From Phycisphaerae bacterium (GTDB taxonomy: Bacteria > Planctomycetota > Phycisphaerae > UBA1845), in assembly GCA_963666835.2 (NCBI GenBank), contig CAXXGO010000001.1, positions 1,760,001 to 1,824,000 of the forward strand: a stretch of DNA of 64,000 bases, given 5' to 3'. Shown here in pieces: positions 1,844 through 61,149 of this stretch (positions within the stretch are counted from its first letter, which is position 1; every line of letters starts with the position of its first letter). The notes beneath the pieces are model-generated. The model ran no database searches. It worked only from the letters and a program-made list of their open reading frames with translations, and was not told the DNA's origin. The translations under genes were made by a program, and so were the position numbers.

Positions 1844-4246
1844 ATGTGGCGTTGCGGAATATTGGCGATTGTCGTCCTTCTGGTCCCAGGTTGTTTCATC
1901 TTCCCGTGGCTAATCCCGGACGGATCGGGTGGGGATGCAACCGGATCTCCAGAATTGAAACAATTTGAATCAGAACAGGAACTTGGGGAGTATTTGACGG
2001 GACAGATCAAGGCCCGGAACTCTCAAGTTGATGACCTATCTAGGGCGCAGGGTGATTCCGACGACGCTGTGGAAGCGCTGGATGCCCCGAACGCCGATAC
2101 CGGGGCTGTCGACGGGGCTGGCGGTGAGGCCGCGCCGACTGCCGACGCCGAGTCTTCGGACGAGTCCTACTCGCAGACGACGACCCAGGAGGTCGGCGTG
2201 GATGAGGCGGACGTCGTCAAGACCGACGGTTCGTACATCTACACCATCCAGGATGAGATCCTCAGGATTGTTCAGGTCGATCCGCGGGAGGCGCTTAGCG
2301 TAGTCGCTGAAGAGGAGGTGGAGGGCTACGGGCGCGAGCTGTACCTATACGACGGGAAGGTCGTGGTGATTACCGACACCGGCGGTTACTTCCACTATGT
2401 CGGGAGTGTAAGCAACGCGACCGAGCCGGCGGTGGTCGATACCGAAGTGGTCGAAGATCCGGCTGTTGGCGATAGCGGCGAGGGAAGTGCCACGTCCGGT
2501 GACGATGGTGATGCTGATGACGATGACGCGGACGCTGACGAGGGCGATAGCCCCGCGTCCGGTGACGATGGCGATGCTGATGATGACCAGGATGGTGATG
2601 AGGAAGACGACGCGGAAGACCGTGAAGATGATCCGAAGCCGGACGAGGAGACCCCGGACGGAGCGGAGCCGGCGGTCGATCCATACTTCGATGACTACGT
2701 GTATGAACGGCCGCAGACCGTTGTGACGATCTACGACGTGTCGGTGCCGAGTAGCCCGGTCCGCTTGTCCCAGATTTCTTTTGATGGTACGCAGTCCTCG
2801 AGCCGGATGATCGACGGGGTGCTGCATCTGGTGTTGGCCAACTACCAGTCGTACTACTACGACGTGCTCCCCCGACTGGGCAGCGAGGAGTTGGATGTAA
2901 CCGATATCGAGGTCGAGGAGCTGCTTCCGGGGTATTCCAAGATCGACGCCGACGGCGTTGAGACGAGCGGGCAGGTCCTCGGATGGGAGAACATGTACCG
3001 GCCGACCGACCCGGACGGGTTCGGCGTGGTGGTAGTGGTCAGCCTCGACGTGGCGGAGAGGGATGCGGGATTCAGCGCGGCCGGGATCGTTGCGGAACCC
3101 GGGCTCGTCTACTCCTCGCTGGAGGCGCTCTATCTGACGGATACGCAGTGGGACTACTTCGGCAACGAGCGCACGACCACCGACATCTACAAGCTGGACT
3201 ACGAAGGACGCGGCGCGGTGCCGGTGGCCACGGGTTCGGTCTCAGGTCGAGTGCTGAACCAGTACTCTATGGGCGAGTCCGACGGGTTCTTCCGAGTGGC
3301 GACTACCTCCGGTTCGGACTTCTGGTGGGGCGGTTCGGAACAGTCCAACAACGTCTACGTTCTTGAACAGACGGGGGACAGTCTGGTCGTAGCCGGCCGG
3401 ATTGAGGACATTGCTCCGGGTGAGGAGATCATGTCGGCGCGGTTCATCGGTGACCGGGGCTATCTCGTGACGTTCGAGCAGATTGACCCGTTGTTCACCC
3501 TCGATTTGACGAATCCGCGCAATCCGCAGGTTGTTGGTGAACTGAAGGTGCCGGGCTTCTCGACGTTCATCGTGCCGATGGACGACGATCACGTGCTGAC
3601 CGTAGGGCAATACATCCCGGAGGATGAGTGGAGCTGGGCGTGGGGCGTGCAGCTTTCCATCTTCGACGTTTCCGACTTCGCGAACCCGACCCTCAGCCAT
3701 AAGGTTGTAGTAGGCGAGGATGGCGGTGCCACGTCGGAGGCCCTCTACAATCCGAAGGCGTTTACCTACTATGCCGCGGAAGGACTGATCGCGCTGCCCG
3801 TCCAGTTGTATGGCTATGTGGACATCTTCCTGGACGAGGACGGTGCCGTCACTGATAACGATGTCGCGGTGGACGTTGAGCCGGACGAGGGGCAGGCGGA
3901 TTCCGACGACGATGTTGTCACCGAACCCGCCGTGTCCGTTGATACGATCGCCGCTGAGAATGACGAGTTCATCGGTGTGGTGGTCTATCGAGTATCCGCC
4001 GAGGCCGGGTTTGAAGAGCTTGGCCGGATCGATACGCAGTACTACGACTACTGGTACTACTGGACCCCGTTCACCAGAGGGGTGTTTATCGAGGACGATG
4101 TCTTCGCAGTTACCAGTGAGGGCGTCCGGGGAGCACCGGTGAGCGACATCGCCAGCTTGCCCTACGAGTTGATCTTCGATACGGAAGAGACCGAAGAACC
4201 CGAGGCGGTTTCGCCGGAAGATGAAAGCGTTTCGGATGTGGAATAA
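1844..4246 (+). CDS. Secreted beta-propeller domain protein (Beta_propel-like) with long acidic insertions
   Basis: Motifs SQTTTQEVGVDEADVVKTDG, GRVLNQYSMGE, ARFIGDRGYLVTFEQIDPLF, GELKVPGFS; lipoprotein-like signal ending LVPGC; GGAGGA RBS before ATG 1844. Confidence 0.85.
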   Translation: MWRCGILAIVVLLVPGCFIFPWLIPDGSGGDATGSPELKQFESEQELGEYLTGQIKARNSQVDDLSRAQGDSDDAVEALDAPNADTGAVDGAGGEAAPTADAESSDESYSQTTTQEVGVDEADVVKTDGSYIYTIQDEILRIVQVDPREALSVVAEEEVEGYGRELYLYDGKVVVITDTGGYFHYVGSVSNATEPAVVDTEVVEDPAVGDSGEGSATSGDDGDADDDDADADEGDSPASGDDGDADDDQDGDEEDDAEDREDDPKPDEETPDGAEPAVDPYFDDYVYERPQTVVTIYDVSVPSSPVRLSQISFDGTQSSSRMIDGVLHLVLANYQSYYYDVLPRLGSEELDVTDIEVEELLPGYSKIDADGVETSGQVLGWENMYRPTDPDGFGVVVVVSLDVAERDAGFSAAGIVAEPGLVYSSLEALYLTDTQWDYFGNERTTTDIYKLDYEGRGAVPVATGSVSGRVLNQYSMGESDGFFRVATTSGSDFWWGGSEQSNNVYVLEQTGDSLVVAGRIEDIAPGEEIMSARFIGDRGYLVTFEQIDPLFTLDLTNPRNPQVVGELKVPGFSTFIVPMDDDHVLTVGQYIPEDEWSWAWGVQLSIFDVSDFANPTLSHKVVVGEDGGATSEALYNPKAFTYYAAEGLIALPVQLYGYVDIFLDEDGAVTDNDVAVDVEPDEGQADSDDDVVTEPAVSVDTIAAENDEFIGVVVYRVSAEAGFEELGRIDTQYYDYWYYWTPFTRGVFIEDDVFAVTSEGVRGAPVSDIASLPYELIFDTEETEEPEAVSPEDESVSDVE

Positions 4247-55813: not shown

Positions 55814-56030
55814 GCATCCTGCCTGCAGCATGTCGGACAAAGCTGTGCGTAACGCAGGCATTCTGCCTGCGGCATGTCGGACAAAGCCGTGCGTAGCGCA
55901 GGCATTCTGCCTGCAGAGTATGTCGAAAAACGCCGGCGGCGTCGGCGGATGTAGGGCAGGTCGAGGTACGAGACCTGCCGCAATGACGCGCGAAGACCAT
56001 GGCAGGTCTCGTTCCTCGACCGTGCCCTAC
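55814..56030. repeat. Continuation of the REP mosaic after the IS
   Basis: 44-bp units at 55849 and 55893, then a GTAG-REP inverted pair at ~55951-56030. Confidence 0.9.
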
Positions 56031-56095
56031 GAGGAGCCCATTCGAATCGACAGATCCTGCAGCCGCACGACGTCAGCCCGGGGGATCGTTGAGGA

Positions 56096-56839
56096 TCACT
56101 CCCGCCGTTTCTTCACGGGCAGGCCTTGTCCCTTGTGAAGCACCTTGAGCGGGGTTCCTCCCGGCAGTTTCAGGACGAAGCGCGACGAGTTGATGTCGAT
56201 GTCCAATTCGATCTTGCTCAGCTCGATCGCGCTGGACGTGTTGCCGTCCTTGTCGTAACGAACCTCTTTCAGCAGTATCCCGTCCGGCCGGTAGGTCAGC
56301 AGAATCCTGGCGTCGGTACCTGTTTGCGTGGCGTCTTTTGCGACGGCTTCGACTACCAAGGTCGGTTCGGCGGCAGAGTCGGCCGACGGCAGCACCTTGA
56401 GTTCATACCGTCTGCGGAGAGACTCAAGGCGTTCTCGCGGATCATCCCCGCCGCAATTCACCCATTGTGCGGCCTTGTCCGTCCCGACGGTGTAGGAGAA
56501 CGTATGTTGCCCATCATCGATCCAAACGCGCTTCTCGACTGCCTTGGCAGTCTCGCTGCCGCTGACCGTTGTGATCTCATATTCTGCAGTGTCCAGCCGT
56601 GACATGATCGTGTTGTCGACCACCGCCTGCTGCAGGGTACCGCGACTGATCGTTTTGACCGTGCCGTCCGCCCGCCGTTGCTCGACAACGCGCTTAAACG
56701 TCGCCGTCATGGACTTGTGATTGCGCCAAGTGTCGGCAATACGTTTTTCCAGATCCTCCAGATCATTCGCAACGCACAAATGCGATGACGCACAGACGAC
56801 AGACACCGCCATTAAGATGATGGTCGACGTTCTTTCCAT
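56096..56839 (-). CDS. Secreted LolA-like fold protein
   Basis: Signal peptide; SMTATF, WIDDG..F.Y, C-terminal IELDIDINSSRFVLKLPGG resemble the LolA/LolB-like family. Confidence 0.6.
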   Translation of the reverse strand: MERTSTIILMAVSVVCASSHLCVANDLEDLEKRIADTWRNHKSMTATFKRVVEQRRADGTVKTISRGTLQQAVVDNTIMSRLDTAEYEITTVSGSETAKAVEKRVWIDDGQHTFSYTVGTDKAAQWVNCGGDDPRERLESLRRRYELKVLPSADSAAEPTLVVEAVAKDATQTGTDARILLTYRPDGILLKEVRYDKDGNTSSAIELSKIELDIDINSSRFVLKLPGGTPLKVLHKGQGLPVKKRRE

Positions 56840-57114
56840 TGTTTCGAACTCCGTGGTGAACAGCATGCGCAGACCCGGCAGCCGCGACTGCTACGTTCCG
56901 ATGACGTGAGCATACCGCGTCGGTTCCATCTCGGTCAACGGGTTTATATACCAAGTTCTCGGTACGACGACCCGCGTCGGTGGGCTCGGCCGCCCGATTG
57001 CCGCGTCGGTGTCGCCCTCGTTTGAGTAGTCGCCAAGCGCTCGCAGGCATCCTGTATTTACATATACCCGCCATCGCCGGCCCGGTTGCCGGAGTCGTCG
57101 AAATCGGCAAAGCG

Positions 57115-57195
57115 GCAGGGCAGGTCGAGGAACGCGACCTGCCGCAATGGCGAGCGAAGACCACGGCAGGTCTTGTTCCTCGACCATGCCCTGCG
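57115..57195. repeat. Degenerate REPIN with GCAG instead of GTAG ends
   Basis: GCAGGGCAGGTCGAGGAACGCGACCTGCC ... GGCAGGTCTTGTTCCTCGACCATGCCCTGC. Confidence 0.8.
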
Positions 57196-57260
57196 AGGGG
57201 CTTCGCGTGAAACGCGGAACGATTCCCCGATGTTCCGAGCCCGACGAGCCGGCGATAGCG

Positions 57261-57494
57261 TCACGTTTCAGCTTTCCGGTCATTGTTGGCTACGTGGGGG
57301 ACCAGTTGCCGGTCCGGTTGTCGCTGCCAGGTTCGGCCGCAACGACAGCACTCCAGGACGATTTGTCCCGCCGCCGTTTCGGCGTAGAACAACGCGCAAC
57401 CGCAAATGCAAAACTCTCTATCGGGTGATTTCATTCCGGGTTGACCTCCCGTAGCACGGGGTGCGGTTTGAGCGTTTAGTTTCATGACTCTCAT
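57261..57494 (-). CDS. Small Cys-rich Zn-ribbon-like protein (77 aa)
   Basis: GGAGGT RBS 6 nt before ATG; FCICGC...LECCRCGRTW. Confidence 0.6.
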   Translation of the reverse strand: MRVMKLNAQTAPRATGGQPGMKSPDREFCICGCALFYAETAAGQIVLECCRCGRTWQRQPDRQLVPHVANNDRKAET

Positions 57495-57563
57495 GTTGTC
57501 ACCTCCGCAGACTCTCCGCCGGCCGTCGCCTTTCCAAAGGCGAGCCCGGTCAGCGGCGATTGC

Positions 57564-57631
57564 AGCCTACACCGGGCGAGCGACAGATGAGGTCGGACCT
57601 AACATCCAAAGGGGCCCGACAGAGTAGGTCG
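57564..57631 (-). promoter_or_regulatory. Candidate WYL-activator-dependent promoter with two CGAC-N7-GTCG operators
   Basis: CGAC-agatgag-GTCG 57581-57595; CGAC-agagtag-GTCG 57617-57631; minus strand TGTCGC-N10-TAGGCT. Confidence 0.6.
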
Positions 57632-57810
57632 AGCCCCCGGGGTGTGGGGCGTGCCGGATGCTGCCGGTGGGATATCTTGGGGGCCGGGAGTTACGAAAAA
57701 AATCCGGATCGCCGGGATGTTAGGCTCGAAGACACGGTCCTTGCGGACGGTGTTCGGCGCGTCGCAGTCACGTGGAAAGGTACAGAAGTTCCCGGCTCGG
57801 GCGGCGTGTC

Positions 57811-58833
57811 TCAACCGTGCAACTCGGCGGCGGCGAGAAGTTCCTCGCGCATTTCGCGGCGTAGGTCGGCGGGGTGGAGAATCTCGGCCTGATCGCCGAA
57901 GCCTTTGATCCAGCGTTTGAATTCGATGACCCCGGACAGGCGATACTTGGCAATCAGCGTGTCGGACTCGTCTCCGGGGGGTTCAAAAAGGGTCTGCTCG
58001 ACAGGTTGCCAGGTGGTTTGCTGGCTCTCGTGCCAGATACGCTCTTCAACCAGAGTGGCGGCCGCCCCGGTGAACTTCACGCGAATCTCAATCGGCTCGC
58101 CTCGAGACTGGAAGATGCCGAAGCTGCTGCGAAACTGGTTCTCGAGATTGAAGTCGGCAGGGCGCTCGAACCGGTCTCCGGTTGTGGCAGCCTCGGCAAT
58201 GCGTGTTACCTTGAACATCCGCACGGCGTCTGCCCGGTGAGACCGGCCGATAGCAAAGAGATCTCCATCGTAATAGACGATTCCGTACGTATCGAACCGC
58301 GTGGTGTATTCACTCGCGCGCCAGAGCCCGCGATATCGAACGTCAATAGTCTTTTCCGATCGGGCCGCGTCAGTTAGGGTCTCGATCGTATTCGCATGCT
58401 CCTGGTAGTCGGTGACTCCCATCCGGCGGACATAGACGGTCTCGTCAAGCTCGGCGAAATAATCCAACGCCTGTGCCGGGAGAAGGCTGCGGATCTTCTT
58501 GAGGATGCTCTCGAGCCCGGCGGCGAGGTTCGTGCCCGCGAGCGGGGTGAGCAGTCGTTCAGCCAGGTGCAGTGAGATGGCCTCAGTCATTCCCAGGAAC
58601 AGGGGACTGGTATCGACGAACCTGTGCGGAAGTCGCCAGAACCGTTTGCCGAACTCGTTGTCGTCATGTTCGATGGGGAAGCCGACTTGCGTGAGTAGCT
58701 TGAGATCTCGCTGGATTGTGCGATCGCTGCCGCCGAGATGGCGGGCCAGTTCCGCAAGCGACATTCCAACTCCCCGCGTCTGCAGGATCTTCAACAGGTT
58801 CCAATGCCGGAGAATCTGCTCGCCGCGTGCCAT
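57811..58833 (-). CDS. HTH-WYL-WCX transcriptional regulator (PafBC/DriD-like)
   Basis: LAELARHLGGSDRTIQRDL HTH; YGIVYYDGDLFAIG..VRMFKVTRI WYL domain; WIKGFGDQAEILHP..LR WCX domain; GGAGG RBS. Confidence 0.93.
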   Translation of the reverse strand: MARGEQILRHWNLLKILQTRGVGMSLAELARHLGGSDRTIQRDLKLLTQVGFPIEHDDNEFGKRFWRLPHRFVDTSPLFLGMTEAISLHLAERLLTPLAGTNLAAGLESILKKIRSLLPAQALDYFAELDETVYVRRMGVTDYQEHANTIETLTDAARSEKTIDVRYRGLWRASEYTTRFDTYGIVYYDGDLFAIGRSHRADAVRMFKVTRIAEAATTGDRFERPADFNLENQFRSSFGIFQSRGEPIEIRVKFTGAAATLVEERIWHESQQTTWQPVEQTLFEPPGDESDTLIAKYRLSGVIEFKRWIKGFGDQAEILHPADLRREMREELLAAAELHG

Positions 58834-59013
58834 TGTGTGTGGACCTCCTAAGGCGATCTACCCTTAATGAACAGCAGCATAGCAAGTTCAGCGGTGTTGA
58901 GGAAGCAGGTAGTACAGGTCGTTGACCGGCCTTTATCATCTTGGCTGATATGGGTCTCGTGACCGCATGGAGATTCCGTTGAAGGCAGGTGAATCACGTG
59001 ATCTACCCCTGAT

Positions 59014-59211
59014 CCGCCACGCCCCCCGCAGGGCTGCACTCCATCGCAGGTGGACGTACGATCAGAACCGCAAGCGTCAGAGCCCGGCCTTCGCTTCACA
59101 TAGGCCGCATACCGGGTGCCAATTCACCGGCACCCCCGACTGCTCCCTGATGGTCGTGGTTCTGATTCGCCCCGCCAAGCGGGCATTCCGCAGGGTCTGA
59201 TAGGGTGGCGG
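59014..59211 (+). ncRNA. Candidate multi-branched structured RNA (~200 nt)
   Basis: Nested stems of 7, 11, 6, 6 and 7 bp; G-U pairs favour the plus strand; no convincing ORF. Confidence 0.35.
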
Positions 59212-59425
59212 TGGCTCGTCAGTAACTCGGCGGTCCGCAGAGTGGCCCGTACGGCTCCGCACGAGGGCAGGCTACGGCGCGGGTGAGCCGCGAATGCTCC
59301 CCGGCCCGCCAACCGATCCACTCTCCACCAGGAAAACGAACTAGCCTGATAATCGCGTCCCGGTTGTGTGACACTGAACTGCACCTCGCAGGATTACCCT
59401 CAAGGGAAATATTCTGCGCATTTGC

Positions 59426-59454
59426 TTGACGTGCGGCTATATAAAGCGTAGAAT
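59426..59454 (+). promoter_or_regulatory. Sigma70-like promoter for the Cys-rich secreted pair
   Basis: TTGACG - 17 nt - TAGAAT. Confidence 0.65.
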
Positions 59455-59601
59455 CTGCCGATAGCATATGCTGGGCAACTGTAAGGTTGTCATTCTTGCC
59501 TCGGTGGGAATTGGCCGGCCCGCCCGGAATGTTGGGGCACTTCCTCGCGCTAGAGGGGTGTTGTGGAGCTTTCTGAGTGCTTGCATATCTGGAGAAAAGC
59601 G

Positions 59602-60120
59602 ATGAAGAAGCTGCTAACGGGGTTAATGGTATTGGGGCTCTGTGCGGGGCTGTTCGGCTTATCGTCACTTCTGTACGCCGCCGACCCTGAACCGGTTGAG
59701 TCGACCGACGCGCAGGCAGAGCAAGAGGAGGAGGCCGCTTGGGAGGCTTGGGAGGCAGACCTCGAGGCCTTGCTGATCGTCGATGACGAGTACGCCGAAG
59801 CCGTGGAGTCCTTGGCTGATTATCTCGGCGACGACGTCGAGGAGTATGCGATTCTCAAGGATGCGCGTTCCCAGAGGTATTTCGAAATAGCCTTGATTGT
59901 ATACGAAGAGCATTTCGGTGAGTGGACGGGCACGACGGAGGACTTCGAAGCACGCATGGAGGAGATTCCCGTCAATCCCAACATTGAGAGCTGTAGCGCA
60001 GCGGCCGTTCTCGGTTGCGGGAAGGGGAAGGTGTGTTCAATGACGTCGTCGCCGGACGGCACTTGCTCTTACACGTGCGCGGGCAAGAACGGGGTTTGCG
60101 GAGGCTCATCGGGCATGTAG
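59602..60120 (+). CDS. Secreted protein with acidic helical region and C-terminal six-Cys domain (paralog 1)
   Basis: GGAG RBS, signal peptide ..LLYA-A, C-x7-C-x5-C-x9-C-x3-C-x6-C. Confidence 0.8.
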   Translation: MKKLLTGLMVLGLCAGLFGLSSLLYAADPEPVESTDAQAEQEEEAAWEAWEADLEALLIVDDEYAEAVESLADYLGDDVEEYAILKDARSQRYFEIALIVYEEHFGEWTGTTEDFEARMEEIPVNPNIESCSAAAVLGCGKGKVCSMTSSPDGTCSYTCAGKNGVCGGSSGM

Positions 60121-60192
60121 TAGTGGGGCCGACTTCGAAACTCGGTATCACCGCGATTCCACGGGGGCGGCCGGGAACCGTGACCGGGGGCA

Positions 60193-60222
60193 GGGGAGCC
60201 GGGTTCGACCGGTTCCCCCTTT
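60193..60222 (+). terminator. Hairpin between the two paralogs
   Basis: GGGGAGCCGG / CCGGTTCCCC stem followed by a short T run. Confidence 0.45.
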
Positions 60223-60303
60223 ACGGGGATTGTGTCGGGCAGTTGGTCGAAGCGAGTAGAACACCTGGCTCGTGGTGATTAACACACCTTGGGGAGAAGA
60301 ACC

Positions 60304-61149
60304 ATGAAGAGACTATTGATGGTATTGGGGCTCTGTGGCGGGTTGCTCGGCGTATCGTCACTTCTGTACGCCGCCGACGCTGAACCGGGGCGAACACAAG
60401 TACAGGAAGAGAAGCACCTGGTCTTGCTGGGCTGCGATGACCTGAGGCAAACGGAGCCGGGAATCTACTATTACCTGCTTTCGGTGGCCGAGCAAGCCGA
60501 AGCTCGTCGGAAGCAAGGTCAAAGCTCCGTACTTGATGAAGACGGGCCTCTGTCGCTCTCGGTTGACCTGACCGGCGATTGCCTGGTTTGCGTGTTGACC
60601 GACCGCAGCGCGGGCAGCACGGATGACGAATCGCAGGCCGTTACCGTGGCGCTTGCCGAGCGGAATGAGAGTGGCCAATACATAACCGGTCCGACGCTTA
60701 CGTTCACTCCTCTGACCGAGGCGCAGGTCGCAGAAGAACAGAAGGAAGCTGCTTGGGATGCCTGGCAAACGGACTTCAAAGCCCGGTTGGCTGCGGACGA
60801 GAAGTACCTCGCGGCCGAGAAGGCGTTGTCGGGCTGGGCCGGTGACGACGACGAGGAGTACGCGATTTTCGAGGACGCACGTGCCCGGCGATATCGAGAA
60901 GTAGCCCTGATGGTATACCAAGAGCATTTCGGCGAATGGACCGGCACCGTGGACGAGTTCGATAAACTCATGGCGGACATCTCGATCATAGCCAACATCG
61001 AAAGTTGCGGCGCCGCGGCCGTTCTCGGTTGCGGCAAGGGCAAGGTGTGCTGGGTGAGATCGTCCGGAGAAGGGTGTTGCACCTTCGCCTGCTACGATGG
61101 AAAGGGCGAGTGCCCGGACTATCCGGCCCCTAGCGTGTCGACTGAATAG
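60304..61149 (+). CDS. Secreted protein, paralog 2, with an extra ~105-aa insertion
   Basis: Shares the signal peptide, EAAW.AW, EEYAI..DAR..RY, EHFGEWTGT, NIESC.AAAVLGCGKGKVC and Cys spacing with paralog 1. Confidence 0.8.
   Translation: MKRLLMVLGLCGGLLGVSSLLYAADAEPGRTQVQEEKHLVLLGCDDLRQTEPGIYYYLLSVAEQAEARRKQGQSSVLDEDGPLSLSVDLTGDCLVCVLTDRSAGSTDDESQAVTVALAERNESGQYITGPTLTFTPLTEAQVAEEQKEAAWDAWQTDFKARLAADEKYLAAEKALSGWAGDDDEEYAIFEDARARRYREVALMVYQEHFGEWTGTVDEFDKLMADISIIANIESCGAAAVLGCGKGKVCWVRSSGEGCCTFACYDGKGECPDYPAPSVSTE

Follow-up and report, generated by a model that had tools for sequence, protein, structure and literature searches.

The WYL-domain regulator encoded in the window (the whole 64,000-nucleotide stretch of DNA analysed here) is, by analogy with characterised regulators, likely to be a homodimeric DriD-type activator that would act in trans on defence loci and in cis on an exchangeable cargo. 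The comparative evidence makes a DriD-type, DdaA-like defence regulon the most likely reading. The two HTH domains of the WYL homodimer would read both halves of a YGAC-N7-GT/AC-R site that covers the -35 position and is separated by 11 nt from a housekeeping -10 hexamer downstream. As in DriD, ssDNA from damage or from phage or plasmid entry would bind the WYL domains, and the dimer would then recruit RNA polymerase; operator binding, ssDNA sensing and activation are thus ascribed to the WYL protein from its relatives. For trans action the dimer would use single sites in front of defence loci, which in this genome are a type I-C cas operon and an AbiE pair. Cis action would proceed from a tandem-operator promoter behind the regulator's own gene, with a putative zinc-ribbon microprotein as cargo here, the commoner home of which is beside ECF sigma and Ser/Thr kinase genes. 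The design of such a regulon is already known; the microprotein family is new. The features of the regulator gene and of the promoter behind it are as follows.

58843..58848, minus strand: GGAGGT ribosome-binding site of the WYL gene
57811..58833, minus strand: WYL regulator gene, 340 aa, HTH_11/HTH_PafC + WYL + WCX (Pfam)
57718..57724, no strand: far arm of an inverted repeat, ~129 nt upstream of the promoter-side operator
57617..57631, no strand: operator 1, upstream copy of the tandem pair, CGAC-N7-GTCG, with no -10 behind it; conserved in the alignment of relatives
57598..57604, minus strand: near arm of the inverted repeat, a conserved motif between both operators
57581..57595, no strand: operator 2, promoter-side copy, CGAC-N7-GTCG, at ~-38 to -24 and straddling the -35 position
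57564..57569, minus strand: predicted -10 hexamer TAGGCT (YA-N3-T), exactly 11 nt behind operator 2
57526..57543, minus strand: hairpin in the predicted 5' leader, without a U tract

An earlier note on this DNA had described the HTH-WYL-WCX gene, two palindromes 36 bp apart with spacers agatgag and agagtag, a minus-strand TGTCGC-N10-TAGGCT, a GGAGGT and a 77-aa ORF with CICGC...CCRC, and all of these proved exact. A contig from a second study covers 56005-59684 with 46 substitutions, which shows that the arrangement did not arise in assembly.

Pfam and the predicted structure gave the WYL regulator a one-chain layout of wHTH, helical linker, WYL and WCX, and its gene was the single PF13280 match in a search of its own genome (92% complete). 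In sequence and in the structural model the protein is nearer the DriD/PafBC activators than the CapW/BrxR repressors, which bears out the activator subfamily proposed earlier. A profile of 13 orthologues searched against the PDB matched PafBC, PafC, DriD and PafB with E values of 3e-15 to 4e-10, in contrast to 0.007 for BrxR and 0.011 for CapW, and a fold search with the predicted structure ranked DriD at the top (~20% identity). R38 and R42, invariant in 13/13 orthologues, align with R37/R41 of DriD, the base-reading arginines of its recognition helix as described in PMC10853764. The pocket residues Y167, R205, K208 and R211 of the WYL domain were also invariant in the 13 orthologues, K208 occupying the position of an arginine in DriD and PafB. 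Orthologues (E < 1e-50) were found in 70/279 genomes of the order with a patchy distribution, and relatives carrying the gene were labelled Phycisphaerae or Planctomycetota, in keeping with the planctomycete host that had been suggested. The WCX domain contains an inserted loop (WYL residues 279-283, ~57985-57999) with an invariant L282-F283 in an E-x-T-L-F context. Speculatively, this loop may resemble sliding-clamp binding motifs.

The bare CGAC-N7-GTCG palindrome was common in this genome (302 copies in 6.0 Mb, only 2 pairs of them within 100 bp) and the loose PafBC-like pattern TGTCG-N11-TA-N3-T was not enriched (85 matches versus 57-105 at other spacings); significance therefore had to be drawn from comparison. 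A loose operator pattern run on five genomes returned 20 matches against 20 in the control, and an extended pattern was used instead. With a matrix derived from 21 sites in other genomes, the extended site of this locus scored 27.8 and, judged by its sequence, is beyond chance. A consensus promoter scan did not detect the promoter behind the WYL gene, and the operator spacer holds no -35 consensus. An Rfam search gave one match only, attributable to chance, and the whole predicted 5' leader folded no better than shuffles (z -1.1).

Comparison between genomes showed conserved sequence, a fixed spacing, co-occurrence of motif and WYL gene, and the gene contexts, together with a bias of the putative targets towards defence. 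The tandem operator recurred behind orthologous WYL genes, its copies 33-36 bp apart and its flanks divergent. Among 47 distinct WYL loci compared, 7 of which were reached via motif search and are hence biased, a downstream operator was found in 35 and a tandem pair in 26; the other 12 had no downstream operator (two of these loci being incomplete). Spacing was examined in 22 WYL loci obtained by protein search and lying outside the training set, with a score computed on the operator only. YA-N3-T occurred at exactly 11 nt behind 15/20 terminal operators; no other offset between 6 and 15 had it more than once, and none of the 7 first-of-pair operators had a -10 at 11 nt. Because the -10 is fixed in this way, operator 2 would occupy the interval from ~-38 to -24, and a transcription start is predicted near 57557. 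The upstream and downstream half-sites were equally conserved, and the central spacer columns of the matrix carried little information. Many WYL loci of relatives also had a single divergent operator upstream of the WYL gene, a position at which this genome has none. In 6 genomes this divergent site precedes a DEDDh exonuclease with a C-terminal WYL domain (Pfam-confirmed), a fusion that is thereby the divergent target seen most often.

Three sites stood out as outliers when this genome was scanned with the matrix (27.8, 29.4 and 30.4; next best 15.4). Besides the one behind the WYL gene, the site at C1:619224 precedes an AbiEi/AbiEii pair with a serine recombinase nearby, and that at C2:3699 precedes a gene remnant and then type I-C cas3-5-8c-7-4-1. 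A module with one gene as its output, as the earlier note had pictured it, does not fit two further sites that head defence loci, and neither is the regulon one of repair genes, before which the note had proposed to test for enrichment. Both recA and lexA are present, LexA scoring above the NCBIfam cut-off, and their upstream regions contained no site (best matrix scores -7.8 and 2.4 versus 27.8-30.4 at the three outliers). The proposal that the circuit is independent of LexA fared unevenly, in that the recA and lexA promoters indeed lack the motif but a LexA is encoded and a conserved inverted repeat lies in the intergenic region. Since LexA is encoded, the WYL regulon would run beside the SOS response; for both reasons, its independence from LexA is presumed. 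LexA-box patterns known from other phyla gave nothing clear upstream of either lexA or recA, so LexA may or may not act at the inverted repeat. The short arms of the inverted repeat are kept at fixed spacing in most relatives in the alignment. Its identity as an attC site or an RNA stem was rejected, as the inner arms are unpaired and three relatives mismatch at a variable position.

Some further observations were made at the two distal loci. Additional sigma70-like hexamer pairs, read by eye, lie between both distal sites and the first gene. The two sites (C1:619030-619230, C2:3693-3891) share a 205-nt leader of 70% identity, which includes a second sigma70-like hexamer pair, and the defence genes downstream differ. 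Between the C2 site and cas3, at 3918-4140, are a 60-codon gene remnant and a degenerate second operator; we take the remnant to resemble the start of SNF2-type defence helicases. A CRISPR-like array is located at the end of contig C1.

Across the order, the exact IUPAC motif gave 85 matches in 60/279 genomes versus 3 for a reversed control. It was present in 46/70 genomes with a WYL orthologue (24/70 having no exact match) versus 14/209 without, a co-occurrence whose odds are overstated because the genomes are kin rather than independent. Outside the order it was found in 11/300 genomes of the phylum versus 3 for the control. The genes downstream of 35 motif sites away from any WYL gene were inspected, and 16 of these sites precede defence genes. 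The CRISPR and restriction targets comprised Cas3, Cas9, Cas1 fusions, Cas8e and type I, IIG and III restriction genes, and the other defence targets were HKD-Snf2 helicase, Pbe/Dnd-like, sacsin-like, PDC and AbiE genes. The remaining 19 sites either have unknown or unrelated genes behind them or look fortuitous, some lying inside ORFs, and none of the 35 was placed before a recA-, uvr- or ssb-like gene. Exact sites would predict defence switching in about a quarter of the genomes of one Phycisphaerae order, with CRISPR types I-C, I-E, I-G-like and II, restriction and AbiE systems under one mobile sensor. The motif also flags candidate defence genes of unknown family.

An unannotated family of 260-330 aa, with no Pfam or PADLOC match, was seen behind the motif at three loci and, in similar-looking form, at two more; it is a candidate defence or stress gene. 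Four restriction/helicase operon loci share a leader containing the WYL site and a second promoter-like element, and a small HTH_17 gene was present in both of the loci that were scanned. The shared leader, second element and HTH_17 gene suggest two-layer control of these operons.

Among characterised systems, DriD of Caulobacter crescentus (PMC9186387, PMC10853764, PMC13004042) shares with the regulator, in the features those texts describe, its domain order, recognition arginines and CGAC-N7-GTCG operator geometry. DriD sites are reported to overlie the -35 position, with a constant distance to the -10, and by our count two of three printed DriD promoter oligonucleotides have 11 nt to YA-N3-T (PMC13004042). 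Given the shared -35 coverage and 11-nt spacing, the promoter design here would be that of DriD. Beyond the low identity, the present system differs in its tandem operators behind the gene and its G+C-rich operator spacer, and where the DriD regulon contains recA and a division inhibitor, we found defence loci, variable regulators and a recA without a site. DdaA of Moraxellaceae has, according to the descriptions in PMC12392091 and PMC13010146, nearly the same operator (CGWCA-N5-TGWCG), and one activator acts in trans on CRISPR-Cas and restriction systems (PMC12392091). As those two accounts describe it, DdaA has replaced LexA, runs core repair genes and uses sites ~50 bp upstream of the start; the present genome, in contrast, retains LexA and has no site at recA, the WYL gene is patchily distributed and the centre of the site falls near -31. 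A regulon of this kind that keeps LexA could be an intermediate between DriD and DdaA. In literature searches of main texts, neither the regulator nor the microprotein was found described in Phycisphaerae, and the DdaA homologue tables could include the subfamily.

Three further WYL systems bear on how the promoter might work. Mycobacterial PafBC, as presented in PMC8635444 and PMC11804915, shares a GTC at -26 and the lack of a -35, but is a heterodimer from two WYL genes that reads one half-site, unlike the single WYL gene here. The homodimer SiwR resembles the regulator in its palindrome between -35 and -10 and in R38/R42, and differs in reading a GGA triplet and controlling adjacent dinB-like genes, as far as PMC10693628 describes it. 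CapW/BrxR have in common with it the wHTH-WYL-WCX order, the control of defence systems and ssDNA sensing in the account of PMC11662680; they are repressors encoded inside the system they control, with a weak sequence match to the regulator here. The PafBC/DriD-type promoter claimed in the earlier note was thus correct in geometry, and the better model is DriD, a homodimer using both half-sites, not PafBC.

Adaptation of sigma in the style of PafBC, with the promoter-side half-site alone being read and the other HTH contacting sigma region 4, would agree with the TGTC at -28 to -25, which is the PafBC position tGTCgg(N10)tA(N3)T in PMC8635444, and with the requirement of homodimeric SiwR for its -26 region (reported in PMC10693628). 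We nevertheless regard it as unlikely, as the upstream half-site is conserved as much as the downstream one, there is one WYL gene and no pafB/pafC pair, and the same geometry occurs in DriD promoters, for which PMC13004042 describes the use of both HTHs. A CapW/BrxR-like repressor seated on the -35 region and released by ssDNA seems very unlikely. Coverage of the -35 position by the operator and a tandem arrangement suited to cooperative repression would be expected of it, and defence loci are targeted as they are by CapW/BrxR (PMC11662680). Against this, release alone should yield a weak promoter, as the operator spacer lacks a -35 consensus, and the -10 spacing is fixed at 11 nt in a system whose regulator is far nearer the activators in sequence and fold. 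The homodimeric DriD-type activator remains our preferred explanation of the promoter, behind which lies the microprotein ORF.

57501..57506, minus strand: GGAGGT before the first ATG (77-aa reading)
57261..57494, minus strand: cysteine-rich microprotein ORF, 77 aa, CICGC...CCRC
57444..57449, minus strand: second GGAGGT, before an in-frame ATG at 57434 (57-aa reading)

From the -10 hexamer to the first ATG there are 69 nt. Conservation begins after the second ATG, and a 57-aa product covers everything conserved in relatives; by this comparison, the start is probably the second ATG at 57434. A word-index search with the 77-aa protein gave no match and tblastn in its own genome missed a paralogue. 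HMMER recovered 13 small relatives (E 5e-6 to 8e-4), and it was by HMMER alone that the family was found. Profile searches, in which 21 candidates per genome were scored and misses are possible, brought the total to 20 copies in 14/279 genomes, all within this family of the order and including the second copy in this genome. In metagenomes a degenerate DNA pattern gave 0 matches, while a tighter DNA alignment gave 7 loci, 4 of them real; one class-level match and three loci were dropped as false. The conservation of the small ORF that the note had looked for is thus borne out, and on sequence grounds the ORF is real and of an undescribed family. Pfam and NCBIfam contained no family for the window copy, and matches of the relatives to Pfam were scattered and weak.

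The family consensus, C-C/x-G/C-x-L-F ... L-E-C-C-x-C-G-x-x-W, and a predicted model of a four-stranded beta meander (pLDDT 72) make a zinc ribbon probable, zinc binding being suggested by the four cysteines. Fold searches gave a best Z of 4.4 and no Foldseek E < 0.09, values that do not imply a new fold, and known zinc-ribbon microproteins (Cys_rich_KTR, DUF7836, YmcF) scored 0.90-0.91 in the Atlas comparison with few shared features. Zinc-binding anti-sigma domains are helical and carry H-x3-C-x2-C. This identity was rejected for the microprotein, which has no conserved His and an all-beta model.

The genomic contexts of the 20 copies fell largely into two kinds: 12 adjoin ECF sigma and/or Ser/Thr kinase genes, and 6, from six genomes of different genera, lie behind a WYL operator (5 adjoining the WYL gene). 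One of the remaining copies is sigma-adjacent by eye only and one is at a contig end. Among the 4 real metagenome copies, three are preceded by an ECF gene. At the paralogue's locus the sigma is TIGR02984-like, falling under that model's cut-off. These usual neighbours may correspond to the kinase-linked Planctomycetes ECF groups (ECF59-62, ECF217; PMC7826278) and TIGR02984-like sigmas; the text of PMC7826278 dealing with these groups mentions no such small gene. An ECF-like upstream motif accompanied 10/16 ECF-context copies and 0/6 WYL-context copies, in a pattern drawn after the copies had been seen. A GCG...GTTT-type motif occurs 80-175 nt upstream of ECF-context copies and may be a promoter of TIGR02984-like sigmas. 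A tree in which the WYL-context copies form one clade was rejected (AU p 0.016; 58 columns, long branches), which suggests repeated recruitment; the window copy itself sits on a long branch.

The slot behind WYL was occupied variously. Of the 35 operator-bearing loci, 10 had a LuxR-type or ECF regulator as cargo, three of these loci being from a single genus; 5 had the microprotein, 3 had Cas3, 2 had an ARPP-1 protein, and the rest had other or unknown genes or no clear ORF. One ECF cargo shares its sigma type with the microprotein's usual neighbour. Since slot contents vary, the microprotein is one cargo among several. The linkage to WYL genes anticipated in the earlier note is therefore seen in 5/35 operator-bearing loci, but not as a fixed partnership, 12/20 copies residing by ECF sigma or kinase genes.

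What the microprotein does is best considered with this context in view. As the commonest alternative cargo is a transcription regulator, it could tentatively be read as a second-tier transcription modulator. About as probable, from gene context, is a neutral passenger, in which case the promoter would be real and the gene an ECF/kinase orphan without a role, stranded behind the outward promoter of a mobile WYL cassette. Such a passenger would accord with the widely variable cargo, the position of 12/20 copies by ECF/kinase genes, the patchiness of the WYL gene (70/279 genomes) and the long branch of the window copy. It accords less well with six copies behind the operator in six genomes of different genera, apparently from several lineages, with an intact frame and cysteines, and with the loss of the ECF-type upstream motif in all six WYL-context copies, a post hoc pattern. 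Rather less probable is the more specific idea of a zinc-ribbon modulator of sigma or RNA polymerase, an ECF/kinase feedback element recruited several times to the WYL promoter. The microprotein's tie to RNA polymerase or a sigma factor is one of gene context. The family connects two regulatory systems, for neither of which an anti-sigma or feedback part is known, and such a modulator, if real, would couple the sensing of phage or damage to envelope-signalling sigma cascades, next to the trans-acting CRISPR/restriction regulon.

Quite unlikely, in our view, is a dedicated ssDNA-triggered module with the microprotein as toxin, division inhibitor or direct defence effector. Small division inhibitors are switched on by DriD and DdaA, according to the regulon descriptions in PMC9186387 and PMC13010146, the regulon is defence-centred, and the microprotein gene of one relative lies near a CBASS-type cyclase. 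Yet there is no partner antitoxin, the sequence has no PADLOC or Pfam match and no transmembrane stretch, and the family mostly accompanies ECF/kinase signalling genes. To our knowledge Planctomycetes lack FtsZ, so a SulA-like target would be missing, which counts against a division inhibitor. For the toxin or division inhibitor that the note had imagined, nothing was found in support.

Two other features of the window were noted. A REP-like inverted repeat occurs at 57123-57185, at 55950-56035 and in many other places, its 22-nt core giving 777 matches in the genome with up to 3 mismatches. At 59563-61149, two genes encode acidic proteins that begin in a signal-like manner and end in a cysteine-rich C-terminus; they have no Pfam match and have further paralogues on contigs C6 and C7.
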